Below, in pieces: positions 18,805 to 36,154 of a stretch of DNA of 64,000 nucleotides. This DNA is from an uncultured Gemmatimonadaceae bacterium (lineage in GTDB: Bacteria; Gemmatimonadota; Gemmatimonadetes; Gemmatimonadales; Gemmatimonadaceae): assembly GCA_963761305.1 (NCBI GenBank), contig CAVXGK010000001.1, positions 1,600,001 to 1,664,000 of the forward strand. The letters are read 5' to 3'. Every line of letters starts with the position of its first letter. Positions within the stretch are counted from its first letter, which is position 1. Below the pieces are notes generated by a model that worked only from the letters and a program-made list of their open reading frames with translations, was not told the DNA's origin and made no database searches. A program made the position numbers and the translations under genes.

Positions 18805-21633
18805 CTAGGAACGTTGCCTGCGCGTGCGGCGACGCTCGCCTCTGAGCGTGGGTTGGCCGGCACCTTTCGCGTCCGTGTGGCGACTCGTCTCCGCCGACGC
18901 CGCCGGGATCGCGAAGTAGAAGCTGCTGCCACGTCCCAGCGCGCTCTCCACCCAAATGCGGCCGCCGTGCGCCTCGACGATGCCGCGGGTGATCGGCAGA
19001 CCGAGTCCCGCGCCGAGTCGACGCGCTCGCGTGGCCGCTTGCCAGAAGCGTTCGAAGACGTGCGGCACGTTTTCGGGCGCGATGCCGGCGCCGGTGTCGG
19101 CGACTGAAAACACGACCTCCTGATTCCCCGGCACCGCGCGAACGGTGATGCATCCGCCCTTCGGCGTGAACTTGACCGCGTTTCCAATGAGGTTGTCGAA
19201 GACCTGGAGCAGGCGGTCGCGATCCCCCATGACAGCCTGAACCCCGCGGTCGACTTCGAGGCGCAGCTCGAGGCCGGCCGACGCGGCGAGTGTGGCGTGA
19301 GTCTCCACCGCATCCCGCGCCAGCTCCACCGCGGAAAGGCGCTCTCGCTCGACCTTCAATTGCCCGGCCTCCACCTGCGCCACGTCGAGGAGATCTTGAA
19401 TCAGGCGATTCATCCGCTCGGCGGAGCGGGCGATGATCAGACGCGGCGTCTGATCGCGCTGCTCCGGCTCCGGGCCGGAACGCTCGAGCATCTCGGCTTG
19501 CATCATGATGGCGCTGAGGGGATTCCTCAGATCGTGGGCGACGATACCCAGCACGTCGTCGCGCGCGGCCAACGCGCGCTGGAGCGCGGCCTCTGCTTGC
19601 TTCCGATCCGTGACGTCGCGCAGCACGACCGAGAAGAACGTCGCTCCTTCGACATCGACCTTGGAGATCGACGCCTCGGCTGGAAACTCCTCGCCGTTCT
19701 TTCGGAGACCGAAGATCTCTCGCATTCGGCGGGCGACTTCCCGCCCGGCGGCGAATGCCGCGAAGTCCGCCCGATGCGCCGCGCGAAAGCGCTCGGGAAT
19801 GAGCCGCTCGAGCGCCGTGCCGAGCACCTCGCGGTTGGCATAGCCAAAGATCTTTTCGGCGCCCTCGTTGAAGATCGTGATGCGCTGGTCCTTGTCGACC
19901 GAGATGATCGCGTCGGACGCAATGGAGACGATGCCGGAGAACTTGGCCTCCGACAGACGAATGGCCTCGCTGGCCCGTTTGCGCAGCGTGACGTCTTCGA
20001 TCTGCGAGATGAAATACCTCGGCGCACCGTCCGGTGCGCGAAACAGCGAGACGTTGAGCAGACACTCGACGACCGACCCGTCTTTGCGGATGTAGCGTTT
20101 CTCGAACTGATATCGCGGGATGTCGCCGCGAGAGAGGCGGTCCGACAGCTCGACCTCTTTTCCGAGATCGTCCGGATGGGTGATGTCGCGGAAGGTGCGT
20201 TGGGTGAGCTCGTCGGCGCTGTAGCCCGTGATGTCGCAGAGCGCGCGATTCACGCGAACGAAGCGGCCGTCGAGCGCGACGAGCGCCATTCCGGTGGCCG
20301 CGTTGTCGATCGTGAGGCGGAACCGCTCCTCCGACTCGCGCAATTGCGCGTTGGCCGACTCGGCCCGCTCCCGAGCGAGCTGCTCGCGTGCCAGCAGTTG
20401 CTCACGCTCGTCGGCGATTCGCCGCGCCTCGGAGATGTCGCGCGTCACCGTGCCCATGCCCAGGATCCGCTTGCCGCTGGCGTCGCGGATTGTGAAATGG
20501 GTATCCGAGACCGGGATCGCCTCGTTCGTCTCGAAATTCCGAAACTGCGTCTCGCCGGACCAGTGGCCGCGCTCGAGCATCGTCTTGAGAATCACATCGG
20601 TGACGAAGGAACGAAGCTCCGGTGGATAGAAATCCTCGATCGGGATTTGGCCCACCGGAAAATCCGGCGACAGGCCGACCATTCGACGGCCGGCGGCGTT
20701 GACGTACATCGGTTTCCCGGCCGGATCGGCGATTCCGATGAAATCCGTGGAGTTGTCGAGCAGAGCCACGAAGACCTGTCGGAAATCCTCGATGCGTTTG
20801 CGCGCGCTGATGTCGCGGATGAACGCCTGCCACCGGCCGTCCGGCAGGATGTTCGCGCTCGTTTCGACGGGCACGCGAGTCCCGTCGCGCCGCATCAACG
20901 TCCATTCGGATTTGGTCACCGTACCCGGCACCAACAGTTCAGCCTTGACCGCCTCCAGTCGCGCCGCGTCCTCGGGCGGGATGACGTCGAAGATCGTCTT
21001 CCCAATCAGCTCGTCGCGCGCGTAACCCACGAGTTGGCAGGCGGCCTGGTTCACGTCGGTAAAGCGGGCGTCGAGATTGGCAAGAAAGTAGGCGTCGGGC
21101 GCGAGCTCGATGGTTTCTCGCTCTCGCGCCAACAATCGTGCGCGCTCTTCGCTTGCATTCCGCAAGGCCTCATTGGCCTCCTCCAGACGTCGGCGCCGTC
21201 TGGTCGTCAGAGCCGCTACGTAGACGATGACGAGTCCGTCGATGGCATACAGCGATACCTGAAGGACTGCCCGTGACACCGAGTTTCCCGCGAACACGAC
21301 GAACATCATGACGCCCAACGGAAAGCTGATCACGACGCTCGCGAACGCGGGGCCGGCCCCAGCCAACAGGCCGGTCAGTAATAACGCGGAGCAGAACAGG
21401 ACGAAGGGAGCGTCCATCCCGATCCACGGCGTCGCCAGGATCCTGACCGCGAGAGCGACCACTACCGCGGAGAGGCCGAACGCATAGCGGGCGACATTGC
21501 TCTGGAAGAGCAGATCGTTGCGCCCGCGACGCGCACGTCGAACGCGCTTGCGACTGAACAACTGCAGAAGACGCTCCCAGAGACCGACACGACGGACGCC
21601 AGGTGAGTCCAGTGAAAAAAACAAGCCGGGCAC
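18805..21633 (-). CDS. Membrane-anchored multi-PAS sensor histidine kinase
   Basis: N-terminal TM bundle (DUF4118-like), ~4 PAS/PAC repeats, AHDLRNPL, NLIGNAVKF, DTGAG, GAGLGL; start uncertain (GTG 21633 chosen to avoid overlapping the upstream gene). Confidence 0.9.
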   Translation of the reverse strand: MPGLFFSLDSPGVRRVGLWERLLQLFSRKRVRRARRGRNDLLFQSNVARYAFGLSAVVVALAVRILATPWIGMDAPFVLFCSALLLTGLLAGAGPAFASVVISFPLGVMMFVVFAGNSVSRAVLQVSLYAIDGLVIVYVAALTTRRRRRLEEANEALRNASEERARLLARERETIELAPDAYFLANLDARFTDVNQAACQLVGYARDELIGKTIFDVIPPEDAARLEAVKAELLVPGTVTKSEWTLMRRDGTRVPVETSANILPDGRWQAFIRDISARKRIEDFRQVFVALLDNSTDFIGIADPAGKPMYVNAAGRRMVGLSPDFPVGQIPIEDFYPPELRSFVTDVILKTMLERGHWSGETQFRNFETNEAIPVSDTHFTIRDASGKRILGMGTVTRDISEARRIADEREQLLAREQLARERAESANAQLRESEERFRLTIDNAATGMALVALDGRFVRVNRALCDITGYSADELTQRTFRDITHPDDLGKEVELSDRLSRGDIPRYQFEKRYIRKDGSVVECLLNVSLFRAPDGAPRYFISQIEDVTLRKRASEAIRLSEAKFSGIVSIASDAIISVDKDQRITIFNEGAEKIFGYANREVLGTALERLIPERFRAAHRADFAAFAAGREVARRMREIFGLRKNGEEFPAEASISKVDVEGATFFSVVLRDVTDRKQAEAALQRALAARDDVLGIVAHDLRNPLSAIMMQAEMLERSGPEPEQRDQTPRLIIARSAERMNRLIQDLLDVAQVEAGQLKVERERLSAVELARDAVETHATLAASAGLELRLEVDRGVQAVMGDRDRLLQVFDNLIGNAVKFTPKGGCITVRAVPGNQEVVFSVADTGAGIAPENVPHVFERFWQAATRARRLGAGLGLPITRGIVEAHGGRIWVESALGRGSSFYFAIPAASAETSRHTDAKGAGQPTLRGERRRTRRQRS

Positions 21634-21731
21634 GTGGACGTCGCCGCGCGTTCTATGAAAGGCGACTGACAGTACTGCCAAAGGTCTATTGTTGCTCGCC
21701 TCGCAACCGGCGCAATCGGGGCGCGCGGCGT

Positions 21732-22103
21732 TCAGCGTTCGTGTGCGGCCGTCGCCAGTGCCGAGCGGAGACGATCCACGACGGCGGCCGGGTCCGCGAC
21801 CTCGATCACCAGTCGCTGGTAGTGTTCGTGATCGAGCTCGATGACGACGGTGCGCTCTGGGTCGTGGACGTCGTAGAACACAAACCCGCTGTCTTGATAG
21901 AAGCTGCCGGCGGTCAACACTCCGGGAATCTGCGTGCCAGGAAGACGCACGCCGTGCCACCAGCCGCGCGCGGGTTCCGGATCGGCGCGCACGCCCGTGA
22001 TGTGCGCGAGCGGAAGCTCGAGTTGGCTCTTCAGGGCCCAGAGCCTGTCCCAGCCCTCGACTTCGAAACGAACGCGGTCCCCATGAATCGAGACTTCAAC
22101 CAT
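21732..22103 (-). CDS. Conserved hypothetical protein (PH-fold-like)
   Basis: GGGAGG RBS; LELPLAHITGVR, RLPGTQIPGVLTAG, YQRLVIEVADP pattern. Confidence 0.7.
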   Translation of the reverse strand: MVEVSIHGDRVRFEVEGWDRLWALKSQLELPLAHITGVRADPEPARGWWHGVRLPGTQIPGVLTAGSFYQDSGFVFYDVHDPERTVVIELDHEHYQRLVIEVADPAAVVDRLRSALATAAHER

Positions 22104-22251: not shown

Positions 22252-22932
22252 ATGCTACTCGGCGTCGCGGGCATGGTCGGCACGGGCAAGACGACGCTTT
22301 CACGCGCGCTGGCCTCTCGGTTCGGTTTGCAGATGGCCCTCGAGAGCGTCGACGCCGAGAATCCGTGGCTCGAGAGCTTCTACGCCGGCCAGGACGAGAT
22401 GCACGCCTACGCGATGCATCTCCAGCTCCACTTCCTCACCACGCGCTTCGCCTCCATGCGCCGCATGCGTGGACTCGGCGGAAGTTGGGTGCTCGACCGC
22501 ACCTGGTACGAGGACGCCGAGATCTTCGCGCGAGGATTGTTCGAGCAGAGCTACATGACGTCGGACGAGTGGACGCTCTATCGGCGATTGTATTCGGAGC
22601 TGCTCCACTCGCCCGCGGCACGGCCGCCGCGATTGCTGATCTACCTCCACGGTCCCGTCGACGTCGTCACCGAACGCATCGCGACGCGCGGCCGTCCGAG
22701 CGAGAAGGACGTGTCGCCGGACTACTGGCGCGCGTTGCACGAGCGCTACGAGCGGTGGATCTCATTATTCCGTCACTGCCCCGTGCTGTCGATCGACGTG
22801 CGAGACTACGATCTCGTCGCCGACGGTTCCGCGGTGGACGAGATCGCGGGGCGTGTGCGCCAGCAGCTCGAGGGCGAGCTGCCGCAGACCGAACTGTGGC
22901 CGGCCGTGTCGCGCCGGCACGCTTTCGCGTGA
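22252..22932 (+). CDS. Deoxynucleoside kinase family protein
   Basis: GMVGTGKTT P-loop, ESVDAENPWLESFY, LQLHFL..RF, LDRTWYEDAEIF, RIATRGR lid. Confidence 0.9.
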   Translation: MLLGVAGMVGTGKTTLSRALASRFGLQMALESVDAENPWLESFYAGQDEMHAYAMHLQLHFLTTRFASMRRMRGLGGSWVLDRTWYEDAEIFARGLFEQSYMTSDEWTLYRRLYSELLHSPAARPPRLLIYLHGPVDVVTERIATRGRPSEKDVSPDYWRALHERYERWISLFRHCPVLSIDVRDYDLVADGSAVDEIAGRVRQQLEGELPQTELWPAVSRRHAFA

Positions 22933-22947: not shown

Positions 22948-23247
22948 ATGGGACTCTTGTCGAAGATTCTCTTCTTTCCCGTCGCCGGGCCTGTCGCCGG
23001 CATCCGCTGGTCGCTCGGTAAGGTCCAGAAAGTCGTCGAGGACGAGCTCACCGACGACACGCCGGTGAAGCAGCAGCTGATGGAGCTGCAGCTCGAGCTC
23101 GAGGTGGGCGACATCGACGACGCCGAGTACTCGCGCCGCGAAGCGGAGATCATGGCGCGACTGCGCGAGGTCCGCGCGTGGCGCGAGCGACTCGGCAAAG
23201 CGACGAGCGGCGGTCCCGTTCGCGTGGCGCGCGACGACGAGGAGTGA
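22948..23247 (+). CDS. gvpG: Gas vesicle protein GvpG
   Basis: MGLL..IL..P..P..G..W N-terminus; L.ELQ..LE.G.I...EY...E..I..RL C-terminus. Confidence 0.85.
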   Translation: MGLLSKILFFPVAGPVAGIRWSLGKVQKVVEDELTDDTPVKQQLMELQLELEVGDIDDAEYSRREAEIMARLREVRAWRERLGKATSGGPVRVARDDEE

Positions 23248-25139
23248 GCGCGCTCGATTCGCTGCTCGATCGACTTCCACGCATCACCCTCGTCGTCGGA
23301 AAAGGCGGCGTCGGCAAGACCACGCTCGCCGTCGGTATCGGCATCGCGTTCGCTCGGCGCGGCGAAAAGACGCTCGTCGTCTCGACGGACCCGGCCGCGG
23401 CGCTCGGCGACGTGATCGGCGCTCCCGTCGGCGGCGCGACGCGCGGCGTGCGCGGAGTGAGCGGCCTTCAGGCGCGCCAACTCGACGCGCTCCCGTTGCG
23501 GCGTGCGTTTCTCGATCGCTGGCGCGCCGTCATGGCGGAAATCGTCGACCGCGGCACGTATCTCGACCGCTCCGAGGTCGATGGACTGGTCGACGCGGCG
23601 CTTCCGGGCGCCGACGAGATCTTCGCGCTGCTCGCGCTCGCCGACGTGATGGCGCAGACGCGCGGTCCGGCGCGGGTCGTCGTCGACACGGCGCCGACCG
23701 GCCACACGCTGCGCCTCCTCGCGCTGCCGGACACGTTTCGCGCGTTGCTCGACATGCTCGAGCTGATGCAGGACAAACACCGGTTCGTCGTCCGCGCCCT
23801 CACGCGCCGCTACGCGCGCGACGCGGCCGACGATTTCCTCGACGAGATGCGCGGCCGCGTCGACACGCTCAAGCGCGTGTTGGCCGACGACCGGTCGCTC
23901 GCCGCGCTGGTCGTCACGCGCGCCGAGCCGGTGGTCGCCGTCGAAACGGCGCGTTACGTCGACGCGCTGCGGACGCTCGGCGTCTCGATCGCGGCGCTGG
24001 TGGTGAACGCGGTGCCCGAGCAGACGGCCGACACGCGCTCGTCGTCTCGCGCGATTGATTCGTCGATTGCCCGGCTTTTCGTTCCGCGGCGATCGCGTCC
24101 TCCGCGCGGCGTCGCCGGTGTATCGGCCACGGTTGCCGCGATGACCACGACAGTCGTGCGACCCGCCGCGCGACCGTCCGTACGACAGGCCGCGCGGCCA
24201 CGAGCGCGAACGACGCGGAAACCCGTGCGCAGCATCGCGCTGGACGCGCTCGTGCGGCCACTCACGATCGTCGGCGGCAAGGGCGGCGTCGGCAAATCCA
24301 CCGTGTCGTGTGCCCTGGCCATCGCGGCCGCCGATGCGGGCGATGGGCCAGTGTTGCTCGTCTCAATCGATCCGGCGCCGTCGATCGCCGACGCGCTCGG
24401 CGTGAAGGACGGATCGTGGAGCGGCGGCGCCGAACGAAATGTCAGCGGGGTGAAAGGACTCGTGGCCCGGCAGCTCGACGCGGCGGCGGCGTTCGCGGCG
24501 GCGCGCGATCGGTACCAGTCGCAGATCGACTCGATGTTCGGCGCCGTGATCGCGCGCAGCGCCGACGCCGAGCGCGATCGCGCCGTCATGCGCGACCTGT
24601 TGTCGCTCGCGCCGCCGGGCGTCGACGAGCTGTTCGCGCTGTCGACGCTCGGTGACGAGCTGGCCGAGGGACGGTTCGCCCGCATCGTCGTCGATCCGGC
24701 GCCAACCGGGCATCTGCTTCGTTTGCTCGAGATGCCGGCGATCGCGCTCGACTGGAGTCATCGCCTGATGCGTCTGATGCTCGACTATCGCGAGGTCGTC
24801 GGGCTCGGCGACGCGGCCGGCGAGCTGCTCGAGTTCGCGAAGCGAACGCGTGCGCTCGACGCGCTGCTGCGCGATCGCGAGCGATCCGGCGTGATACTCG
24901 TCACTCTCGACGAGCCCGTCGTGCGGTTACAGACGCGCCGACTCGCGCGCGCGGTGCGGCAGCGCGGCGCCGACGTGATCGCGCTCGTTTGGAATCGAAC
25001 GAGCCGATCGATCGACCCTCTTCCTCAGTTCGTTGCCGCGCGCCAAGTTTGCGCCGAAGAGACGCGTCCGTCGCCGGTCGGCGTCGCGACGTTGCGAACA
25101 TGGTCGCGCTCCTGGCGCGAGGTACGCGCTACGGCTTGA
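23244..25139 (+). CDS. ArsA/Get3-family (SIMIBI) ATPase with two tandem nucleotide-binding domains
   Basis: Two GKGGVGK(T/S) deviant P-loops, S(T/I)DPA switch I, PG(A/V)DE, DTAPTGH and DPAPTGH switch II; GTGA overlap with gvpG. Confidence 0.92.
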   Translation: MSALDSLLDRLPRITLVVGKGGVGKTTLAVGIGIAFARRGEKTLVVSTDPAAALGDVIGAPVGGATRGVRGVSGLQARQLDALPLRRAFLDRWRAVMAEIVDRGTYLDRSEVDGLVDAALPGADEIFALLALADVMAQTRGPARVVVDTAPTGHTLRLLALPDTFRALLDMLELMQDKHRFVVRALTRRYARDAADDFLDEMRGRVDTLKRVLADDRSLAALVVTRAEPVVAVETARYVDALRTLGVSIAALVVNAVPEQTADTRSSSRAIDSSIARLFVPRRSRPPRGVAGVSATVAAMTTTVVRPAARPSVRQAARPRARTTRKPVRSIALDALVRPLTIVGGKGGVGKSTVSCALAIAAADAGDGPVLLVSIDPAPSIADALGVKDGSWSGGAERNVSGVKGLVARQLDAAAAFAAARDRYQSQIDSMFGAVIARSADAERDRAVMRDLLSLAPPGVDELFALSTLGDELAEGRFARIVVDPAPTGHLLRLLEMPAIALDWSHRLMRLMLDYREVVGLGDAAGELLEFAKRTRALDALLRDRERSGVILVTLDEPVVRLQTRRLARAVRQRGADVIALVWNRTSRSIDPLPQFVAARQVCAEETRPSPVGVATLRTWSRSWREVRATA

Positions 25140-25149
25140 GTGTTCTCGA

Positions 25150-25971
25150 ATGTCCTCGTCCACCACATCGATCTGCTACGTGTACGGCATCGTCCCGTCG
25201 GCGCTCGACGCCGCGTCCGCGCCCGAGGGGCTCGACGGCGCACGCGTGGCCCTAGAGCACTGCGACGGGGTCGCCGCGCTCGTGTCGTCGGTGGATGGCG
25301 AGTCGTACGCGCCGTCGGTGCTGGAGCAGAGCACGGGGGACGTCGAGTGGATGAGCCCGCGCGCCGTCGCGCACGACCGCGTGCTCACCTGGGCGAGCGA
25401 CCGCGGCGCCGTGATCCCGATGCCGATGTTCTCGCTCTTCACCGGCTCGGCGTCCGTGCAACGGATGCTGTGCGAGCGGTCGCCGCAACTCGCCGAAACG
25501 TTGCGGCGTGTTTCGCAGGGGCGCGAGTACGCGCTGCGCGTCTACCGAGTGGACGCCGAGTTGATGGAGGCGATGACCTCGCTCAGCCCGCGGCTCGCCG
25601 AGCTCGCCGCCAAGTCCGCCGCGGCGTCGCCGGGGCAACGGTACCTGCTCGAGCGCAAGCTCGACGACGAAAAGCGCTCCGAGATGCGCGGCGTGACGAC
25701 GGAAGTCACCGACGCGATCGTCGGCGCGCTGTCGGCCGACGCGCTCGAGTCGGCGCGCTCGCCGATTCCGCGCGTGACCGACGCGGCCGGACGCGGAACG
25801 ATGGTGTTGAACGCGGCGTTTCTCGTCGCACCCGACCGGCTGATGGCGTTTCAGCAGACGTTGACGTCGCTGGTGGAACAGCACGGTGCGCGCGGATTCC
25901 GCTTCGACTTCACCGGGCCGTGGCCGCCGTATCACTTCGCCAGCGGCAACGCGGCGGGAAACGGCGCATGA
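25150..25971 (+). CDS. gvpL: GvpL/GvpF family gas vesicle protein
   Basis: YVYGIV N-terminus, AHDRVL, VIPMP, PGQRYL, LNAAFLV, TGPWPPYHF C-terminus. Confidence 0.88.
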   Translation: MSSSTTSICYVYGIVPSALDAASAPEGLDGARVALEHCDGVAALVSSVDGESYAPSVLEQSTGDVEWMSPRAVAHDRVLTWASDRGAVIPMPMFSLFTGSASVQRMLCERSPQLAETLRRVSQGREYALRVYRVDAELMEAMTSLSPRLAELAAKSAAASPGQRYLLERKLDDEKRSEMRGVTTEVTDAIVGALSADALESARSPIPRVTDAAGRGTMVLNAAFLVAPDRLMAFQQTLTSLVEQHGARGFRFDFTGPWPPYHFASGNAAGNGA

Positions 25972-26195
25972 CCAACGAGGACGATGACATCGATGCGCGA
26001 CAGGTGGTCCTTGGCGACCTGCTCAACCACGTGCTCGACAAGGGCCTCGTGATCGGCGGCACAGTGACGATCTCCGTCGCGGACATCGACCTGGTGCTCG
26101 TCGATCTCCGCGTGCTGCTCACGTCCGTCGAGACGGTGGCCAGTCGCGGCATCGAGCGCAGCGCCGGCGCGATCGTGTCCGGGGCAAGTCGATGA
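25968..26195 (+). CDS. GvpA/J/M-family small gas vesicle protein (GvpS/GvpM-like)
   Basis: ATGA overlap at 25968; RQVVLGDLLNHVLDKGLVIGGTVTISVADIDLVLVDLRVLLTSVE. Confidence 0.85.
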   Translation: MTNEDDDIDARQVVLGDLLNHVLDKGLVIGGTVTISVADIDLVLVDLRVLLTSVETVASRGIERSAGAIVSGASR

Positions 26196-26941
26196 AGACG
26201 CACCTCTACTGCGTGCTTCCGCCGGATGACGGCGTGCTGCCGACCGGCTTGAGCGGTGTAGCCGGGGCACGCGTTCGCGCCATTCCCGTCGACGGCGTGG
26301 TGGCGTGGGTGAGCGACGTCGAGCGCGACGTGCCGGTGTCGTTCGAGGGCGTGCGCGCCCACGACGCCGTGGTCGAGGCGGCGCTCGAGATGGGTTCCAC
26401 GCCGGTCCCGGCCCGCTTCGGACAGCGCTTCGCCGACGACGCCGCCGTTCGCACCGCGCTATCGAGCCGGGCCGCGTCGGTCGAGCGGCTGGTCACGACG
26501 GTCCAGGGCTACGTGGAAATGACGCTGGTGCTCACGCCGTCCACTCGCCGGATGTTGCGCGACCTCGAGCCGGTGCTCCCCGAGATGTTCGACCTCGATT
26601 CTGCGGGCACTGGCCGCCGGTATCTCGAGGCGCTGAGGGCCCGCGAGGATGCGACCGGCGCGGTTCGATCGGCCCTTGATGAGCTCGCAAGTCAACTGGA
26701 GACGGCCACGCGGGACTGGGTCGTACGCTCGGCGATGCACGATCAGGTTACGAAGCTTCCCCTCCGCACGATCTCGCACCTCATCGCGCGGGGCTCGATC
26801 GCGCAATACAGGCGCGCCATCGGAGAGGTGAACGCGGATGGCGAGTTCCGATTTCTGCTGATCGGCCCGCGGGCGCCCTACAGTTTCTGTTCGCTCACCA
26901 GCGAACCGGCCGGAACACACGGCATGAAACTGGCGGACTGA
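26192..26941 (+). CDS. Second GvpL/GvpF family protein
   Basis: HLYCVL, GVAGARV, AHDAVVE, PVPARFG, GRRYL, GPRAPYSF. Confidence 0.82.
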   Translation: MKTHLYCVLPPDDGVLPTGLSGVAGARVRAIPVDGVVAWVSDVERDVPVSFEGVRAHDAVVEAALEMGSTPVPARFGQRFADDAAVRTALSSRAASVERLVTTVQGYVEMTLVLTPSTRRMLRDLEPVLPEMFDLDSAGTGRRYLEALRAREDATGAVRSALDELASQLETATRDWVVRSAMHDQVTKLPLRTISHLIARGSIAQYRRAIGEVNADGEFRFLLIGPRAPYSFCSLTSEPAGTHGMKLAD

Positions 26942-26943
26942 GC

Positions 26944-27315
26944 GTGGCAAATTCGGAATCGGTGCCGAACTCAACCGCCGATGCGGGTTCGGAGCACCGC
27001 GAATCCGGGAGTCCGTTCGACGCGGACCTGGCAGCCGTCGCCCGCGTGCTCCCCGATCGCATCAACGCCGATCCCGAGCGAGTTGAGCAAGGCCTTGCGC
27101 GACTTGTCTTGACCGTGATAGAACTGCTGCGCGAAGTGCTCGAGCATCAAGCCGTGAGACGCATGGACGGCGGGACGCTGAGCGAGGAGCAAGTGGAGCA
27201 GCTCGGAATGGCGCTGCTCAAGTTGAATCATCGGATGGACGAACTGAAAGGCCTTTTCGGACTGACCGACGAGGATCTGAACATCGACCTCGGACCGTTG
27301 GGCCGGCTGCGGTAA
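26944..27315 (+). CDS. gvpK: Gas vesicle protein GvpK
   Basis: GLARLVLTVIELLREVLEHQAVRRMDGGTLSEEQVEQLG...DLNIDLGPLG. Confidence 0.93.
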   Translation: MANSESVPNSTADAGSEHRESGSPFDADLAAVARVLPDRINADPERVEQGLARLVLTVIELLREVLEHQAVRRMDGGTLSEEQVEQLGMALLKLNHRMDELKGLFGLTDEDLNIDLGPLGRLR

Positions 27316-27348
27316 CCGCGGTGCGGACACTTCATTCTCGGCGACTGC

Positions 27349-27684
27349 ATGCCAGAGCTCGTTAGCCCCTCACGCACGCACGGATTGGTCGACATCCTCG
27401 ACCGCGTGCTCGACAAGGGGCTCGTCATTGCCGGGGACATCAAGATCAATCTCGCCAACGTCGAGTTGCTGACGATTCAGGTGCGATTGCTCGTTTGCTC
27501 CATCGACAAAGCCGAACAAATCGGGTTGAACTGGTGGCGGAGTGATCCGCGCCTGACGATGTCGCCTGCCGCGTCGGTGATGCCCGAGATCGAAACCCGG
27601 TTGGCTCGCATCGAAGAACAGCTGACTCGACTCTCGCACGCCCCGACTGCGGCTCGGGTAGAGCCGAAAACGCGTAAATCGTAA
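27349..27684 (+). CDS. gvpJ: Gas vesicle protein GvpJ
   Basis: [51 protein letters not shown]. Confidence 0.92.
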   Translation: MPELVSPSRTHGLVDILDRVLDKGLVIAGDIKINLANVELLTIQVRLLVCSIDKAEQIGLNWWRSDPRLTMSPAASVMPEIETRLARIEEQLTRLSHAPTAARVEPKTRKS

Positions 27685-27740
27685 GAAGTGGCTGCGCCAG
27701 CCTGGGCAAGCCGGTACCCTAGACTCCGAGGACGGAGACC

Positions 27741-28040
27741 ATGGCCGTCGAACGCACCCCAAGTGGCAGTTCGCTCATCGATGTGCTCGACCGCGTGCTG
27801 GACAAGGGCATCGTCATCGATGCCTGGGTGCGAGTTTCGCTGGTAGGAATCGACCTGGTAACCGTCGAAGCGCGCATCGTCGTCGCGTCGATCGACACGT
27901 ACTTGAAGTACTCGGAGGCAGTCGGCATCACCAGCTCGGTGTCGCGTCCACGCGAGATCGGCAGTGGTGACGAGTTGGAGCGGGTCCAGCGTGAGAACGC
28001 CGAACTCCGCCGGCAGCTCGAGGCTCGGGCAGTCAAATAA
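27741..28040 (+). CDS. gvpA: Major gas vesicle shell protein GvpA
   Basis: [60 protein letters not shown]. Confidence 0.95.
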
Positions 28041-28061: not shown

Positions 28062-30299
28062 ATGGCCGTTCTCGGAGACCGGGAGCTCGCCGGTCTCCTC
28101 TCAGCGATCGCCGAGGCGCCGGACATATCCGCCGCGACGTCGCATCTGCTCGCGCAGCTTGCCGATCTCACGGCTGCGCGACGAGCGGTCATGCTCAAGC
28201 TCGACCCCGCACAGCACAGCCTGGTAGCGGTCGCGAGCCTCGGATTTGGCGACGCGCCGCCGTCATTCAGCATCTCGCTGGGCGACCTCTCCAGTCCGCT
28301 CGTCATCAGCGCGTTGAGCCTCGTCCCGATGCAGAGCGGCTCCGAGATCGGGCTGCAGGCGCTCGACAGAATGACGCCGTGGATCGCCCTCCCGATGTCG
28401 CAGCCGTTGCAGCGAGGATCGCTCGAGGTCATGAAGCGCGACCGCGCCGCGGAACTGATCGCGTCACGGCCCGTGACGATGCGCGCGCCACCCGAGCATC
28501 GCGTGGCGGCGGCGCCGGCCGGCTGCGTCGTCCTCTCGGGCGAGTTCGACGACGCGACGACCGCCGCCGCGATCGAGTTGGTCATGCTCGCGAGTCCGAT
28601 CGTCGCGCGCGTCGCGGCGCTGCACGAGACGAGCGAGGCGGCAATCCGTCTTTCGCAGCATCGAGAGAGACTGACGCTCGTCGTCGAGTCGCTTCCCGAC
28701 CCCGTCGTGATCACGAACGCGGCGAACGACATCGTCGTCCAGAATCACCGCGCCGAGCGTCTGCTCCAGGCGCGCGACAACGATTCGGTCGGACGTCGGC
28801 GCGCGGTCGAGTTGAACAACCTGCTGCTCACCGCGTTCCTGTCCAAGGCGGCGATGAGCGGCGGCGTGCAACACGGACCGCGCGAGTTGAATCTCGTCGA
28901 CCCGGACGAAGGCAACGACCTCCTGTTCGAGGTGCTGGCGCACCCGCTCGGCGACCGCGCCGGTCCGGACGAGTCGGTTCTCTCCGTGCTGCGCGACGTG
29001 ACCGATCTGCGCCGCGCGGCGAATGAGCTCGAGCGTCAGGTTCAGCGCGTGCGCCAAGCGGAGATCAGCGTCCGCGGCGAGCGCGATCGTCTCAATCTCG
29101 TCCTCGAGAACGTGGCCGATCCGATCCTGGTCACCGACGAGCGGTCGAACATCATTTTGATGAACGATCAGGCCGAGATGCTGTTCCAGGTGAGCGAGTC
29201 CGAGCCGCGCACGCGCCGCGAGTTGGCCAACGTTCGCGGGAACGACACGAAGTTCACGTCGTTCATCTCCGAGTTCGCGATGCAGGACGACGATTCGCGC
29301 CGGGAGCGAATGACGCTCGTCTACCCGCGCTCCGGGACGAGCCTGCCCGTCGAAGTCGTGTCGGGCAAGGTCAAGAACGAACGCGGCGAGCCGATCGCCG
29401 TCGTCTCGGTGCTGCACGATCTTACCAAGCAGGTGGAGAACGAGCGGCTCTACGACGCACTAAAAAAGCTTAATTCCGAGCTCGAACGCCGCATCCGCGA
29501 CGCGACCGCCGATCTCGCCGACCAGAACGCGCGACTGCAGTGGCAGTCGCAAGAGGTCGAGCGCGCCAACAAGCTCAAATCGGAGTTCCTTGCCAGCATG
29601 TCCCACGAGCTGCGCACGCCGATCAACGCGCTCATCGGCTACTCGGCGCTGCTGCTCGACGGCGTGCTGGGCGAGGTGAATACCCGCCAGCACGACGCGC
29701 TGATGCGAGGCCGCGCGGCCGCCGAGCACCTGCTCGCGTTGATCAACGACATCCTCGACCTGGCCAAGATCGAGGCGGGCAAGATGCCGCTGCGCCTCGA
29801 GGAAGTCTCGCTCCGCGAGGTTACGCTCGAGGTCACGCAGCAGATCGAGCCGATGGTGCGGAAGAAGCAGCTCGAGTTCAAGATGGATATCGCTCCCGAC
29901 TGCCCGCCGATCTACTCCGATCGTACCAAAGTGAAGCAGATCCTGCTCAATCTGCTGTCGAACGCCGTGAAGTTCACCAATCGCGGGCGTGTCACCGTCG
30001 AAGCACATCGGGCGGTGGATGGGGTCCGCATCGACGTCGTGGACACGGGCATCGGCATTCGGGCGTCGGACCTCCAGGCCATCTGGGAGGACTTCCGCCA
30101 AGTCGACCAGTCGCGCACGCGTGAGTTCGGCGGAACTGGATTGGGACTCAGCATCACCCGCAAACTCCTGGATCGACTCGGCGGGTCGGTCGACGTGCGC
30201 AGCACCTATGGCGACGGGAGCACCTTCTCGGTGTATCTCCCCCTCCGCGTGCCGGCCGCGACGGCGTCAGAGTACGCCGTGATTGAGGTGTCAGGCTAG
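28062..30299 (+). CDS. Cytoplasmic sensor histidine kinase (GAF-like N-terminus, two PAS, HisKA, HATPase)
   Basis: LPDPVVITN and VADPILVTD PAS starts; SHELRTP; NLLSNAVKF; DTGIG; GGTGLGL; 21 nt after gvpA. Confidence 0.92.
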   Translation: MAVLGDRELAGLLSAIAEAPDISAATSHLLAQLADLTAARRAVMLKLDPAQHSLVAVASLGFGDAPPSFSISLGDLSSPLVISALSLVPMQSGSEIGLQALDRMTPWIALPMSQPLQRGSLEVMKRDRAAELIASRPVTMRAPPEHRVAAAPAGCVVLSGEFDDATTAAAIELVMLASPIVARVAALHETSEAAIRLSQHRERLTLVVESLPDPVVITNAANDIVVQNHRAERLLQARDNDSVGRRRAVELNNLLLTAFLSKAAMSGGVQHGPRELNLVDPDEGNDLLFEVLAHPLGDRAGPDESVLSVLRDVTDLRRAANELERQVQRVRQAEISVRGERDRLNLVLENVADPILVTDERSNIILMNDQAEMLFQVSESEPRTRRELANVRGNDTKFTSFISEFAMQDDDSRRERMTLVYPRSGTSLPVEVVSGKVKNERGEPIAVVSVLHDLTKQVENERLYDALKKLNSELERRIRDATADLADQNARLQWQSQEVERANKLKSEFLASMSHELRTPINALIGYSALLLDGVLGEVNTRQHDALMRGRAAAEHLLALINDILDLAKIEAGKMPLRLEEVSLREVTLEVTQQIEPMVRKKQLEFKMDIAPDCPPIYSDRTKVKQILLNLLSNAVKFTNRGRVTVEAHRAVDGVRIDVVDTGIGIRASDLQAIWEDFRQVDQSRTREFGGTGLGLSITRKLLDRLGGSVDVRSTYGDGSTFSVYLPLRVPAATASEYAVIEVSG

Positions 30300-30525: not shown

Positions 30526-30631
30526 CGAAACTGAGGCGTAACATCGGGGTACTTAACTCCGTCCATAGAGTGAACCTGTTTCGGGGATGGTGCTCATGTT
30601 CGGCTCGTCAGTTGCGGCGCGTGGCTCCTCG

Positions 30632-31507
30632 ATGCGGTGGGCCGTCATCGGCCTCACGCTCGGCCTCTGTGCGGCATGTTCGGATAAGGAAGCGGCGTCC
30701 CGCGCCGGCGGCGACTCGTCGCTAGCGCGCGACTTGGCGCTCGCGAATTCACAAGGCGCGACACCGCCGCAGTTGCAGGACACGGCGACCGCGCCGGCTC
30801 CCACTCCCGCGAGCCATGCGCAACGCGAGGATCGTCCGGCGCCGGTGCGTACGCACACGGCACGGCGACCCCAGGTCGAGCAGCCGCCGCAGCAGTCGCG
30901 TGCGGCTCCGCCCAGTGTGCAGACGCCGCCGGTGATGCCGGCTCCGGCTCCGTCGACGCTTCCGGCGGCGATGCCGGCCGCGGCCCCGTCGCGTGGTGAG
31001 ATCGGGTCCGGCTCGACGTTCGCGCTCACGAACGGCACGAAGGTCTGCACGTCGAACGTGCCGGGCGACAAGATCGTCGCGACGCTCAACGAGTCCGTCA
31101 CCGGTTCGAACGGCGCCGTGATTCCGTCGGGCTCCACGGTCGTGCTCGAGGTGGCGTCGGTCACGCCCGGCGACAACGGCACCGATCCGAAGATCGCGCT
31201 GCGTGTGAAGAGCGTCGTGGTGAGCGACAAGACGTATCCGGTGTCGGGCGACGTCACGCCACTCGCACCACTCGACAAGACGAAGATCGCCGACGGCGGA
31301 ACGGACAAGACGAAGGTCGTCGGCGGCGCGATCGCCGGCGCGATTCTCGGCCAGATGATCGGCCACAACACCAAGGGCACGCTGATCGGCGCGGCCGCGG
31401 GTGCCGCGACTGGCGCCGCGGTCGGCCATCAGGGCGAGCAGTGGGCGGCGTGCTTGCCCGCCGGCGCTCCAATGAGACTGACGCTGTCTTCGCCGATCAT
31501 GATGTAG
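30632..31507 (+). CDS. Putative lipoprotein with Pro-rich linker and C-terminal glycine zipper
   Basis: LCAAC lipobox, DSSLARDLALA, GGAIAGAILG...GTLIGAAAGAATG; alternative start 30587. Confidence 0.75.
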   Translation: MRWAVIGLTLGLCAACSDKEAASRAGGDSSLARDLALANSQGATPPQLQDTATAPAPTPASHAQREDRPAPVRTHTARRPQVEQPPQQSRAAPPSVQTPPVMPAPAPSTLPAAMPAAAPSRGEIGSGSTFALTNGTKVCTSNVPGDKIVATLNESVTGSNGAVIPSGSTVVLEVASVTPGDNGTDPKIALRVKSVVVSDKTYPVSGDVTPLAPLDKTKIADGGTDKTKVVGGAIAGAILGQMIGHNTKGTLIGAAAGAATGAAVGHQGEQWAACLPAGAPMRLTLSSPIMM

Positions 31508-31590: not shown

Positions 31591-31645
31591 TGTCGACTCC
31601 AGATGATTGCCGTACCTTACCGCCGTGAGCCGAGAGCCGCCTCCC

Positions 31646-34600
31646 GTGAGCAGCGTTTTTTCGCAGACGGAATTCCACCCGCTCGTTCGTGCCTGGTTCG
31701 AGGAATCGCTCGGCGCGCCGAGCGCGCCGCAGCGCGAGGGGTGGCCGGCGATCGCGAGTGGATCGCACACGCTGATCCTCGCGCCGACAGGCACCGGTAA
31801 GACCCTCACGGCGTTTCTCTGGGAGCTGAATCAGCTGATCGTTGACGGCGCCGCGGCGCCACTCCCGAACGCGGTCCAGATCCTCTACGTCTCGCCGCTC
31901 AAGGCGCTGAACAACGACATCCAGCGCAACCTCGAGCGCCCGCTCACCGAGCTGCGCGAGCGCTTCGAGGCGGCCGGTGAGCCGTTCCCGGAGATCCGCG
32001 TCGCCGTCCGCACCGGCGACACGCCGCAGTCGGCGCGGGCGCGCATGCTCCGCAAGTCGCCGCACATCCTCATCACGACGCCCGAGTCGTTGCACATCAT
32101 GCTGACGACGGTGCGCGGTCGTGGGATGTTCAGCGGCGTTCGCGCGGTGATCGTCGACGAGATCCACGCGATCGCGGGGAGCAAGCGCGGGGTGCACCTC
32201 GCGCTCACGCTCGAACGTCTCGACCGCCTCTGCGACGAGCCGCCGCAGCGCATCGGACTGTCGGCCACGCAGCGCCCGCTCGACGAGATCGCACGATTCC
32301 TCGTCGGCCAGGACACGAGCGCGGCGGGCGACACGACGCCGCGGCCGTGCACGATCGTCGACTGCGGGCTCGTGAAGCGCATCGAGCTGGCTGTCGAGTC
32401 TCCGGTCGAAGATCTCGCGCACGTCGGCGGCACGATCTGGACGTCGGTGACGCCGCTCGTGCTGCGGCACATGGCCGGCGCGCGCACGACGCTCATCTTC
32501 GTCAACAATCGCGCGCAAGCCGAGAAGATGGCGGCGCGCGTCAACGCGCTCGCCGGTGAGGAGATCGCGCTTCCGTACCATGGATCGCTGTCTCGCGAGC
32601 GACGGCTCATTCTCGAACAGTCGTTGAAGGCGGGCCGCCTTCGAGCACTCGTCAGCACGAGCGCGCTCGAGTTGGGAATCGACATCGGCTCGATCGATCT
32701 CGTGTTGCAACTGCAGTCGCCCAAGCGCGTGGCCAACGGACTACAGCGCGTCGGCCGCGCCGGACACACACTCGATGCCGTGAGCCGCGGCGTGTTCGTG
32801 CCGACGTTCCGCGACGACGCGCTCGAGATGCTGGCCATCGTGCGCTCCATGCGCGCCGGCGACGTCGAACCGACGCGCGTCGTGCAGAACGCGCTCGACG
32901 TGCTGGCCCAGGTGATCGTCGCCGCCGTGTCGATCGACGACGATTGGACGAGCGCGTCGCTCTTCGATCTCGTCCGACGCTCGTATCCGTACCACGCCCT
33001 GACACGCACGGCGTTCGACGAAGTGCTGGAGATGTTGTCGGGGAAGTATCCGGCCGACGTCGCGTCGGAGCTGGATGCTCGTCTCGCATGGGATCGCGTC
33101 AGCGACGCGCTCACCGCGTCGCGCAGCGCGCGCATGGTCGCCGTGATTTCCGGCGGCACGATTCCCGACCGCGGCCTCTACACGGTCAATCTCCTCGATC
33201 GCACGCGGCTCGGCGAATTGGACGAGGAGTTCGTGCACGAAACACGCGTCGGCGACGTGTTTCAGTTGGGCTCCTCGACGTGGCGCGTCAACACGATCGA
33301 GCACGACCGCGTGATCGTCACGCCGGCGCCGGGCGCACCCGCTCGAATGCCCTTCTGGCACGGCGAGTACGCGGCCCGCTCCTCGCATCTCGCGCCGGCG
33401 ATAGGCGAGCTGCGTCGTCAGCTGGATTCCGCTCGCACGCCGCAAGCCGTCGATGAGATCGCCGCTCAATACGGCAGCGACCGGGCGACGGCGCAATCGC
33501 TCGTCGAGTACGTGCACGAGCAGCGGGCCGCTACCGGCGCCGTGCCGGACGATCGCTCACTCGTCGTCGAGCAGTTCCGCGACGAGACGAACGCCGTTCG
33601 CGTCGTGATTCACGCGCCGTTCGGCGGGCGGGTCAACGCGCCGTGGGGAATGGCGCTGGCGCACCGCGCACGCGAAGTGCTCGGCCACGGCGCTGTGGTG
33701 CAGGTGCAGACGACCGACGACGGCGTCATGCTCCGTTTTCCGGACATGCGAGACTGGCTGCCGCTCTCGCTCGTCTCCGACATGACCGCCGGCGAAGCTC
33801 AGCGGCGCATGCTCGACGAAGTGGGATCGACGTCGCTCTTCGGCGCGCGGTTTCGCGTGAACGCCGCACGCGCGCTTCTGTTGCCTCGCGGTACGGCTCG
33901 TCGGCGCATGCCGCTCTGGCTGCAGCGGCTCAAAGCGCGCGACCTGCTCGACGCGGTGCGCGAGTATCCGTCCTTTCCGATTCTCGTCGAGACGTATCGC
34001 GACGTGTTGCAGGACGCGTTCGACGTGCCGGCGCTCACGCGCATGCTCGACGACCTCGCCAGCGGAGCGATCGGTCTGCGCTCCGTACAAATACAGGTGC
34101 CGTCGCCGTTCGCGTCGTCTCTGCAGCTCGGCTTCGTCATGGATTGGATGTACGCCGACGACACGCCGCACGCCGAGCAGCGCGCCGCACTGCTCTCGCT
34201 CGACCGCGCGCTCCTCGACGAGCTGCTCGGCACGGAGGGCGCCGACGCCGAAACGCTGGTCACGCTGGAAGCGATGCTCGCGCGGCGTCGCGGCACCGCG
34301 CTCGGCGCGCGTGCGCGCACGGCCGACGAGCTGGCGATCCTCCTCGACCGCGCCGGCGATCTCTCACTCGCCGAGTTGCGCGACCGAACCGCCGAGGAAG
34401 CCGAGGGAAGAAGGGGCGATCCGCTCGGCGATTTGCTCGATCGCGGCCGTATCGTGCCTGTTGCGATTCCAGGAGGATCGCGACCTGTAGAAAGTCGTTA
34501 CGCGCTCGCCGAGACGGTGACCCGTTACACAGATGCATTCGGCGAGCAGTCGCCGACACGTAAAGCGGCGCAGCGCGAGATCCTCGTTCGGTTCATCTCG

Positions 34601-36154
34601 CTCGCCGGTGCCGTGTCGGTCGACGACGCGCTTCGCCGATACGCGTTCGAGCCGAGCTGGGTCCGCGAGCAGTTCGACGACTGGACGAGAAGCGGCCGAC
34701 TGGTGCGCGGCAAATTCGGCGGCGACGCTACGGATCGCTGGTGCTCTCGCCGCTTGCTCGAGCAAGCGCGCCGGCGCGAGCTGGCACAGGCGCGCAAACA
34801 GATTCAAGCCGTCGACCTCGAGCGCTTTTCGCGATTCATGCTTCGCTGGCAGCACGTCGCCCCGTCCGCGCGACTCGGCGACGATGACGCCACGACGCGC
34901 GCCGCGCGGCAGCTGTACGGCCTGTCGCGCCCCGCCGATTTGTGGGAGCGTGAACTGCTCCCCGCGCGCGTCGAGAACTACGACCAGACGGCGATCGCGC
35001 GTCTGATCGCGGCCGGCGAGTTGGTATGGGTCGGCGGCGGCGCACCCACCGCGGCCGACGAAGCGCCCATCCTTTCGAACATTCGAATGGTGCGGCGCGG
35101 CACCGGACGCGCATGGCTGCCCGAGTCGGCGCCGCCGATCGGCGAAGCCGCGACGACGACTCTCGAGGCGCTGACGCGAACGGGCGCCGTGTTTTTCGAC
35201 GAGCTGCTGACCGAGACCTCGTTCTCGGCGCGCAAGCTGCGCGACGCGTTGCGCGAGTTGGTCGGCGCCGGACTCGTCACGAACGACACGATCGACGCGA
35301 TGCGCGCCGTGGTGCGATGGCGACCGCTCGTCTCGCCGCGTGAACGCACGCGCCCCGATCCGACGCGATGGCTGCCGCCGGAGTTCACGCCGTCGGCGAA
35401 CCGATACGTCGTGCAACGCCGCCCGAATTCGCGCCGCTTGCCTCGGTGGCGACGGCCGGATCTGCCCGGCGGCGACGCCGACACCTGGCCCGGCCGATGG
35501 TCGCTGGTGTCGACTCCGCGCGTGCTCGGCGCAGCTGGCGACGAGGCCGCGCTCGGCGAAGCAATCGCGCGGCAATGGCTCGACCGCTACGGCGTCGTCG
35601 CGCGGGAAATGTGGCGGCGCGAGCGGCCGCCGGTTCCGTGGCGAACGATCTACCGGGAGCTCAAGCGCCTCGAGTTCCGCGGCGACGTGCGTCGCGGGTA
35701 CTTCGTGCGCGGACTCTCAGGCGCACAGTTCGCGCTGCCGGAGGCCGTTGAGGCGTTGCGCGCCGACGACGGCGACGACGAGCCTATCGTGATCGCCGCC
35801 GCCGATCCGGCGAACGTGTTCCCGCTTCCGCTCGCGGGCGATCCAGCGCGCGACGCGTTCGTCCGGCCGCGGAGCTCGAGTGCGTTGCTGGTGGTGCTCG
35901 ATGGCCGCGTGCTGATGATCGCCGAACGGCGCGGTGCGCGCGTCGTCGTGCGTCCGGAGAGCGACGAGGCGAGCGTGACGCGCGCGGCCGCAGGTCTGGT
36001 ACGACACCTGTCGGCGCGAATTCGCCGCGACGTCGTTCTCGAAACGATCGACGGCCAGCCGGCGGCCACGAGCCCGCACGCTCAGGCCTTCGCCGCGGCG
36101 GGATTCAGGCGCGGCACGACCGAGCTCCGTCTCCTTCGGCGAAACGCGGTGTGA
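31646..36154 (+). CDS. lhr: Lhr-family long DEAD/DEAH helicase with C-terminal winged-helix (AlkZ/HTH_42-like) region
   Basis: APTGTGKT, YVSPLKALNNDI, TTPESL, DEIH, GLSAT, LELGIDIG, QRVGRAGH, GTIPDRG, RGYFVRGLSGAQFA; start could be GTG 31625 or 31646. Confidence 0.93.
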   Translation: MSSVFSQTEFHPLVRAWFEESLGAPSAPQREGWPAIASGSHTLILAPTGTGKTLTAFLWELNQLIVDGAAAPLPNAVQILYVSPLKALNNDIQRNLERPLTELRERFEAAGEPFPEIRVAVRTGDTPQSARARMLRKSPHILITTPESLHIMLTTVRGRGMFSGVRAVIVDEIHAIAGSKRGVHLALTLERLDRLCDEPPQRIGLSATQRPLDEIARFLVGQDTSAAGDTTPRPCTIVDCGLVKRIELAVESPVEDLAHVGGTIWTSVTPLVLRHMAGARTTLIFVNNRAQAEKMAARVNALAGEEIALPYHGSLSRERRLILEQSLKAGRLRALVSTSALELGIDIGSIDLVLQLQSPKRVANGLQRVGRAGHTLDAVSRGVFVPTFRDDALEMLAIVRSMRAGDVEPTRVVQNALDVLAQVIVAAVSIDDDWTSASLFDLVRRSYPYHALTRTAFDEVLEMLSGKYPADVASELDARLAWDRVSDALTASRSARMVAVISGGTIPDRGLYTVNLLDRTRLGELDEEFVHETRVGDVFQLGSSTWRVNTIEHDRVIVTPAPGAPARMPFWHGEYAARSSHLAPAIGELRRQLDSARTPQAVDEIAAQYGSDRATAQSLVEYVHEQRAATGAVPDDRSLVVEQFRDETNAVRVVIHAPFGGRVNAPWGMALAHRAREVLGHGAVVQVQTTDDGVMLRFPDMRDWLPLSLVSDMTAGEAQRRMLDEVGSTSLFGARFRVNAARALLLPRGTARRRMPLWLQRLKARDLLDAVREYPSFPILVETYRDVLQDAFDVPALTRMLDDLASGAIGLRSVQIQVPSPFASSLQLGFVMDWMYADDTPHAEQRAALLSLDRALLDELLGTEGADAETLVTLEAMLARRRGTALGARARTADELAILLDRAGDLSLAELRDRTAEEAEGRRGDPLGDLLDRGRIVPVAIPGGSRPVESRYALAETVTRYTDAFGEQSPTRKAAQREILVRFISLAGAVSVDDALRRYAFEPSWVREQFDDWTRSGRLVRGKFGGDATDRWCSRRLLEQARRRELAQARKQIQAVDLERFSRFMLRWQHVAPSARLGDDDATTRAARQLYGLSRPADLWERELLPARVENYDQTAIARLIAAGELVWVGGGAPTAADEAPILSNIRMVRRGTGRAWLPESAPPIGEAATTTLEALTRTGAVFFDELLTETSFSARKLRDALRELVGAGLVTNDTIDAMRAVVRWRPLVSPRERTRPDPTRWLPPEFTPSANRYVVQRRPNSRRLPRWRRPDLPGGDADTWPGRWSLVSTPRVLGAAGDEAALGEAIARQWLDRYGVVAREMWRRERPPVPWRTIYRELKRLEFRGDVRRGYFVRGLSGAQFALPEAVEALRADDGDDEPIVIAAADPANVFPLPLAGDPARDAFVRPRSSSALLVVLDGRVLMIAERRGARVVVRPESDEASVTRAAAGLVRHLSARIRRDVVLETIDGQPAATSPHAQAFAAAGFRRGTTELRLLRRNAV

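Follow-up and report, generated by a model that had tools for sequence, protein, structure and literature searches.

A gas-vesicle gene cluster without gvpN, with a tandem Get3/ArsA-family ATPase and a linked histidine kinase, in an uncultured Gemmatimonadaceae bacterium

Why non-aquatic bacteria retain gas-vesicle genes is a long-standing question, and it is raised again by a gene cluster in a 64,000-nucleotide stretch of DNA from an uncultured Gemmatimonadaceae bacterium (contig CAVXGK010000001.1, positions 1,600,001 to 1,664,000 of the forward strand; the window). The cluster carries a Get3/ArsA-family ATPase and no gvpN, and the first-pass annotation of the sequence proposed either that the ATPase serves instead of GvpN or that the product is not meant for buoyancy. 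What does such a cluster build, and what is the ATPase for? The answer that we consider probable on balance, drawn from gene content, is that the gvpN-less cluster builds small bicone-type particles, with a chaperone ATPase as an optional part and a histidine kinase in control. A product that does not serve buoyancy is judged plausible, and the gvpN-less clade, to which the cluster belongs, is a compact and testable case of the general question.

Genes of the cluster and the gvpN-less clade

The genes considered here are, in window positions:
22948..23247, +, gvpG (99 residues, hydrophobic N-terminal helix; PF05120, 71.8 bits)
23244..25139, +, tandem Get3/ArsA-family ATPase of a gvp-linked clade, an optional part (631 residues; TIGR00345, 275 bits)
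25150..25971, +, gvpL-like gene 1, GvpL/F family (273 residues; PF06386, 186 bits)
25968..26195, +, gvpS-like gene, GvpA family (75 residues; PF00741)
26192..26941, +, gvpL-like gene 2 (249 residues; PF06386, 125 bits), not in shorter relatives
26944..27315, +, gvpK (123 residues; PF05121, 118 bits)
27349..27684, +, gvpJ-like gene (111 residues; PF00741)
27741..28040, +, gvpA (99 residues; canonical shell core, residues 1-70, and a C-terminal tail of about 30 residues)
28062..30299, +, soluble GAF-like/PAS/PAS histidine kinase (745 residues; Pfam PAS twice, HisKA, HATPase_c)
22252..22932, +, deoxynucleoside kinase (PF01712, 144 bits), 15 bp 5' of gvpG

The eight same-strand genes from gvpG to gvpA were borne out at these positions, as were the 4-bp overlaps (GTGA at 23244, ATGA at 25968 and 26192); the remaining gaps are 10, 2, 33 and 56 bp. 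The first-pass annotation took gvpA for the last gene and overlooked the histidine kinase, which starts 21 bp 3' of it; its gene list also missed the true gvpF, located at a second locus. Pfam assigned to the operon one GvpG, one ArsA_ATPase (two stretches, 257 bits), two GvpL_GvpF, three Gas_vesicle and one GvpK match. The hydropathy of GvpG (19-residue window) peaked at 1.62 over residues 1-19. GvpA passed the NF006874 threshold (117 bits, cut-off 100), and its residues 1-70 matched solved shell proteins throughout (E-values 3.5e-28 to 8gbs and 5e-22 to 7r1c). With G, L, S, K and J in the window and F at the second locus, the nucleation set is complete in the genome. Close homologues carry the Gemmatimonadaceae label, and a scan of the operon for promoters and terminators gave chance-level signals only.

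The absence of gvpN held in a profile search of the genome, which is 93% complete: no GvpN was found, and the top match, a CbbQ/NirQ-type AAA protein, reached 38.9 bits where 266.8 are required. As a positive control, 7 of 17 other genomes gave matches above the threshold of the same profile. GvpO and GvpC gave no match in the genome, with profiles that gave no match in any control either.

The relatives of the cluster share the layout gvpF-G-[ATPase]-L-S-[L]-K-J-A-kinase, and A, F, G, L, S, K and J form the invariant gene set of gvpN-less clusters. In a tree of six concatenated Gvp proteins, in which 37 gvpN-less clusters were set against 5 gvpN clusters, the 37 came from four phyla and formed one branch (Shimodaira-Hasegawa-like approximate likelihood ratio test, SH-aLRT, 100), with a long-branch warning on the gvpN clusters. 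Conservation of GvpA within this clade is about 90% over residues 1-70. These are followed by a C-terminal tail of 20-40 residues, whereas in gvpN clusters GvpA stops near residue 70; the tail is coiled-coil-like in most kinase-bearing lineages and low-complexity in the kinase-less Acidobacteriota. We found no earlier description of a conserved, kinase-linked gvpN-less clade, and a literature search covering titles and the starts of abstracts, outside subscription journals, returned no paper on it. The link between the ATPase and gvp genes and the gvpN-less clusters of Streptomyces were already known; what is added here is a four-way presence table, repeated ATPase loss, a genome with both cluster types, the S-K fusion and a relocated gvpF-kinase pair.

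In the S-K fusion, the gvpS and gvpK domains share one reading frame, as seen in 6 of the phylum's 20 genomes with GvpK; short clusters had at first looked as if gvpS were lost, a reading rejected on this ground. A single S-K frame accompanied by loss of the second gvpL was seen at L077, L078, L079, L080, L082, L054 and about 18 metagenome loci.

The predicted product

Small, pressure-resistant particles are expected because of the invariant A-F-G-L-S-K-J set, the bicones obtained in gvpN deletions and the canonical, tailed GvpA. Deletion of gvpN in Serratia gave bicones that do not float (PMC4982088), and its deletion from an engineered cluster gave bicones of 39.7 x 72.3 nm, the morphology being unchanged by deletion of C, R, T and U (PMC10327013). 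The engineered set likewise consists of nucleation genes and GvpA; the set described here differs in being natural, in its conservation across at least four phyla and in the kinase that accompanies most copies. By our own arithmetic with assumed densities, it would take about 3,600-4,300 bicones to make a 1-fL cell buoyant.

In the mechanism that we propose, GvpF (in trans, from the second locus) together with G, L, S, K and J would nucleate a canonical GvpA shell, whose growth, without GvpN, would halt at the bicone stage as it does in gvpN deletions. The helical groove of the ATPase may hold hydrophobic Gvp subunits, with G, S, A or J as candidate clients, and ATP turnover would free them; the ATPase would thus be helpful, not required. 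The cytosolic kinase, which in other phyla has a stand-alone receiver 3' of it, would finally set expression or assembly on a putative small-molecule or redox cue, in a manner comparable to the control of gvpA1 by the gvr genes in Serratia. In Bacillus megaterium, GvpF and GvpG were proposed as GvpA chaperones and GvpN as an elongation factor (PMC11445434), and the Anabaena gvpABC, NJKFG and VW genes gave irregular vesicles in E. coli (PMC7204071).

Alternatively, the cluster could build ordinary elongated, buoyant vesicles without a dedicated GvpN, either because a housekeeping AAA+ protein acts in trans or because the GvpA tail makes GvpN dispensable. GvpA is indeed canonical and a CbbQ/NirQ-type AAA protein is present in the genome; moreover, clusters without gvpN are described for Streptomyces (PMC4982088), which is listed among vesicle formers. 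The likeness to these actinomycete clusters is one of description and not of sequence comparison. We consider this explanation unlikely, since the published gvpN deletions stop at bicones or tiny vesicles, gvpA is a single gene, gvpC was not found (by a profile without positive control), and the Terriglobia genome G304 has, in addition to a gvpN-less cluster, a distinct one with gvpN, which suggests different products.

It is also conceivable, but distinctly unlikely in our estimate, that no hollow particle arises and the Gvp proteins make up a scaffold or signalling assembly without gas. Stand-alone GvpF/L-like genes in 4 of 5 genomes in which no gvpA was found, and the signalling genes adjoining such a gene in this genome, would fit a scaffold. 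The conservation of the GvpA core, its matches to solved shell proteins and the retention of all nucleation genes argue for a shell.

What makes the clade a compact case is that its seven conserved gvp genes correspond to the engineered bicone set, that the kinase is defined, and that clusters both carrying and lacking the ATPase occur in nature. If it makes bicones, acoustic reporter work would gain from it very small particles of natural origin that resist pressure.

The tandem ATPase and its relation to GvpN

The motifs GKGGVGKT/GKGGVGKS and DTAPTGH/DPAPTGH were confirmed in the two halves of the ATPase, which has just two Cys residues (C356 and C603) in 631. In the 46 sequences compared, the P-loop, the switch I Asp and switch II are invariant in both halves, and no Cys is invariant. 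The column of the metalloid-binding Cys (C113/C422) holds Cys in 36 of 36 metalloid-ArsA halves; in gvp-linked ATPases, each of the 46 N and C halves that were scored has Gly there. The C172 motif of E. coli ArsA has no counterpart in the alignment. Switch II is followed by 67 and 60 residues in the two halves, versus 53 and 41 in Cys-ArsA, and the structural model has long helices at 152-187/194-214 and 488-514/522-543. By its sequence, the ATPase is Get3-like in anatomy, with an insert in both halves, extended helices and no metalloid Cys. It scored above the threshold of TIGR00345 (275 bits, cut-off 135) and far under that of TIGR04291 (167 bits, cut-off 650), and its top PDB sequence match was Chlamydomonas ArsA1 (E-value 8e-48), with E. 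coli ArsA at 2e-32.

Databases label relatives of this protein as arsenite-transporting ATPases and the tandem fold is ArsA-like, so that an arsenite or antimonite pump subunit lying in the cluster by chance had to be considered. We give this next to no probability. Besides the Gly at the metalloid position, the TIGR04291 score and a separate position in the tree, neither ArsB nor Acr3 was found in the 93%-complete genome (0 matches; of 14 genomes, 7 and 5 respectively gave positive-control matches), which extends genome-wide the first-pass statement that no arsB or acr3 lies nearby. An arsenic role was accordingly rejected.

In the ATPase tree (134 domains, quick search, eukaryotic Get3 left out), all 47 gvp-linked halves and 4 halves of two unlinked loci formed one branch (SH-aLRT 98) that did not include the 36 Cys-ArsA halves, and the N and C halves grouped separately. 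ATPases from clusters with and without gvpN both fell inside this gvp-linked clade. The distinction from metalloid ArsA is supported by the tree, by the missing Cys ligands and by the lack of ArsB and Acr3. To follow the gene linkage, we took 1 of 64 parts of GTDB, which gave 80 ArsA-family loci. Seventeen exceeded 300 bits on a profile built in this analysis, including all 15 with gvp genes, so that linkage is conserved at 15 of 17 clade loci; none of the other 63 loci had gvp genes. At 4 of the 15 linked loci GvpN was over its cut-off, 8 were gvpN-less with the kinase, and 3 more were cut by contig ends. A stand-alone receiver lay in or beside the cluster at 7 of the 8 gvpN-less kinase loci, in other phyla. 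No GvpN was found in 10 of the 11 genomes with gvpN-less or contig-cut loci, the exception being G304, which has a classical GvpN/CDC48/Hsp20 cluster (L181) and a gvpN-less kinase cluster (L096), each with its own ATPase.

Does the ATPase, then, replace GvpN and open a distinct assembly route to full-size vesicles? Its translational coupling to gvpG (the 4-bp overlap at 23244) and its intact catalytic sites would agree with this. Of 301 genomes of the phylum, 20 have GvpK and none of these 20 has GvpN. An ATPase orthologue (E-value below 1e-100, the remaining 71 matches being above 1e-30) was present in 10 of the 301, in one of them split over two frames; all 10 lie inside gvp clusters, and 10 of the 20 clusters have none. 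We then combined these 20 with GvpK-picked genomes from a search of 201 Myxococcota and 201 Acidobacteriota, giving 39 genomes:
gvpN present, ATPase present: 3
gvpN present, ATPase absent: 5
gvpN absent, ATPase present: 19
gvpN absent, ATPase absent: 12

The ATPase is therefore found in 19 of 31 gvpN-less and 3 of 8 gvpN-bearing clusters, a difference in the proposed direction that is not significant (Fisher p = 0.26; kin are not independent), so that the survey of neighbourhoods revealed no significant anticorrelation. The table includes ATPases on other contigs in G626 and G420, a weak ATPase match on a 2.5-kb fragment (G672), and the unpublished G155 and G095, without which it reads 3/5/17/12; G304, with its two cluster types, is counted outside it. 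Ten of the 12 gvpN-less clusters without ATPase were checked genome-wide. Furthermore, ATPase and GvpN occur together at seven loci (L097, L107, L108, L110, L181, L288, L299) and in a survey of 2010 (PMC2963123), and a single ATPase clade is common to both cluster types. On the cluster tree, the ATPase switches between present and absent 6 times, and well-supported branches force no fewer than 5 of these switches, which we read as repeated loss, presumably at least 5 times among gvpN-less clusters. Replacement of GvpN was rejected on the co-occurrence table, the trees and the two cluster types of G304, and we regard it as very unlikely. Of the earlier interpretation, a non-ArsA, Get3-like protein with a conserved gvp link stood, and its role "instead of GvpN" did not. 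In our analysis the ATPase is likely an optional helper chaperone (holdase) and not a GvpN substitute, since this fits both the ATPase data and the published chaperone and elongation roles.

The classical clusters L097, L107, L110, L181, L288-L291 and L299 also contained CDC48-family ATPase genes, mostly together with Hsp20, and a small DnaJ-like zinc-finger gene was seen in L108 and L110.

The first-pass annotation had supposed that an ArsA-gvp link might have been noticed before, and it was published in 2010. Castillo & Saier reported ArsA homologues in gvp clusters and proposed for them a step of biogenesis distinct from that of GvpN; their clusters 4 and 6 are likewise two-domain proteins of about 630 residues, in gvp clusters without ars genes, and for the acidobacterial Ellin345 two L/F genes with J, K and M are listed and gvpN is not (PMC2963123). 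Their ATPases differ in lying mostly alongside gvpN, with two distinct ATPase steps proposed; the passages available from that paper report no kinase, gvpN-less clade or repeated ATPase loss, and the string "Gemmat" has 0 matches in them. Farkas et al. 2019 proposed bacterial insert-bearing homologues as general chaperones, and their groups 7/8 (tandem Get3 with TRC40 insert) likewise have two domains, both with the insert, and lack the metalloid Cys; group 8 has a CxxC motif that the window ATPase lacks (PMC6593721). The word "vesicle" appears nowhere in that paper, and a literature search joining Get3 with gas vesicles returned no paper. Gvp proteins would give the bacterial tandem Get3 proteins, so far uncharacterised, a first set of candidate clients.

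The histidine kinase and the second locus

The kinase was modelled over residues 1-455 (predicted local distance difference test score, pLDDT, 86) as a GAF-like domain and two PAS domains with long connecting helices, and Foldseek returned generic tandem-PAS and phytochrome matches only. We read it as cytosolic because hydrophobicity is highest in the output helix of the GAF domain. Long helices are conserved in the PAS domains, in which neither a His nor a Cys is invariant. The Terriglobia kinases (L096, L104, L105) carry an insert with four Cys within the GAF region, which may be a metal or redox site; the window kinase lacks it.

The PAS module of the kinase was present in 25 of 301 genomes of the phylum, that is in 19 of 20 with GvpK, in each of the 19 immediately 3' of gvpA, and in 6 of 281 others. 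One of these six has gvpF-gvpA-kinase and one a gvpF remnant. At L266 (G216) and L234, a gvpF fragment lies right 5' of the kinase and the other gvp genes are gone, which looks like a cluster deletion that left the kinase. A metagenome scan sampled 17 of 64 parts, and among the best 80 kinase loci, close kin, the gene 5' of the kinase was gvpA in 60 and gvpF in 11, with a contig edge in 9; gvpN was found at none of these 80, and the ATPase at 12 of the 30 loci that span gvpG to gvpA. In the 39-genome set, the kinase accompanied 24 of 31 gvpN-less clusters (22 of 29 without G155 and G095) and 0 of 8 gvpN-bearing ones; in Myxococcota it was sought solely in the fetched regions. This distribution suggests that the kinase most likely controls the gas-vesicle system.

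A more specific role is that the particles are themselves the sensor, with the kinase docking on GvpA tails or GvpF and reporting the state of the particle to a two-component pathway; we hold this to be unlikely, though of some appeal. The kinase tracks gvpA across phyla and stays despite altered gene order, 12 loci form a clade that has retained a second gvpF-kinase pair, the GvpA tail is coiled-coil-like in most kinase-bearing lineages, and the PAS domains have the long helices described above without an invariant His or Cys, all of which would fit this role. The support comes from gene order alone, however, and docking is putative. The tail is kept in the kinase-less G038, Terriglobia have the kinase and a tail that is not a coiled coil, lone kinases occur in genomes without a found gvpA, and a deletion within a duplicated operon can explain the gvpF-kinase pair. 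The states that might be read, at similarly long odds, are collapse under turgor or pressure, drying and gas content. Extended to soil-type bacteria of several phyla, a natural bicone serving as a sensory organelle read by the GAF-PAS-PAS kinase, with the ATPase as optional chaperone, has the same small chance.

Several observations weigh against bicone-type particles with an optional chaperone and a controlling kinase. The predicted particles, client binding, expression and activity all derive from gene content, and another AAA+ protein could stand in for GvpN in trans. Most of the genomes are incomplete metagenome-assembled genomes, and kin among them are not independent. Of 31 gvpN-less clusters, 7 lack the kinase, 5 of these in Acidobacteriota, and 5 genomes have the kinase but gave no gvpA in a search without positive control. 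The cluster here adjoins neither a receiver gene nor one for a DNA-binding regulator. The classical Thiohalocapsa cluster has a PAS-PAS kinase and a receiver, and the likeness of its kinase to that of the window is a generic PAS-PAS one (E-value 6e-7). Regarding the ATPase, Foldseek puts tandem ArsA (9nbw, 1f48) above ArsA1 and Get3, an order that is expected for any tandem fusion yet gives a Get3 role no support. Two of the 17 ATPase-clade loci (L099, L112) have no nearby gvp gene, and Mxa1 of Myxococcus xanthus is not linked to gvp genes (PMC2963123); because of these three cases the ATPase may have other uses. At L099:10001-13839, a cyanobacterial member of the clade lies just 5' of fraC/fraD, and the gvpN cluster of that genome is elsewhere.

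Control of the bicone-type system by the kinase has a parallel in Serratia. There, GvrB is presumably a PAS kinase and GvrC a receiver; the window kinase belongs to a distinct GAF-PAS-PAS family with no NtrC-type gene adjacent, and is set apart from GvrB by description only. The regulatory genes gvrA, gvrB and gvrC of Serratia sp. ATCC 39006 likewise lie within the gvp locus, which, as here, encodes three GvpA and three GvpF/L paralogues; Serratia differs in having gvpN, C and V and in forming cylinders (PMC4982088, PMC6617781).

The gvpF orthologue, the top GvpL/F match of the genome (270 bits), is located on another contig (G000:C2:2169353-2170156; L001:9351-10157, -). The order at this second locus (G000:C2, about 2167170-2170160, -) is gvpF, 30 bp, a paralogue of the kinase (L001:7170-9320) and priA, and the gvpF-kinase pair belongs to the clade of 12 loci mentioned above. 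In 18 of 20 genomes of the phylum gvpF is within the cluster; here and in a same-genus genome, a deoxynucleoside kinase occupies that slot. Seen only in these two genomes, it is probably not a functional part of the cluster.

The cluster is flanked upstream by a four-PAS histidine kinase (18805-21960, -) and a small protein of no assigned family (21732-22103, -), which were not seen at the clusters of relatives, and downstream by a glycine-zipper protein (30587-31507, +) and an Lhr helicase (31607-36154, +), which among relatives were seen at the cluster of the same-genus genome alone. A GvpF/L-like gene that is short (212 residues) and stands alone (L001:15290-15928, -) lies in a run with a GAF kinase, open reading frames of 93 and 111 residues, a Ser/Thr kinase and a gene of the histone-deacetylase family. 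Matches of this short kind are those in 4 of the 5 genomes without a found gvpA, so this stand-alone family may serve some function other than gas-vesicle formation.

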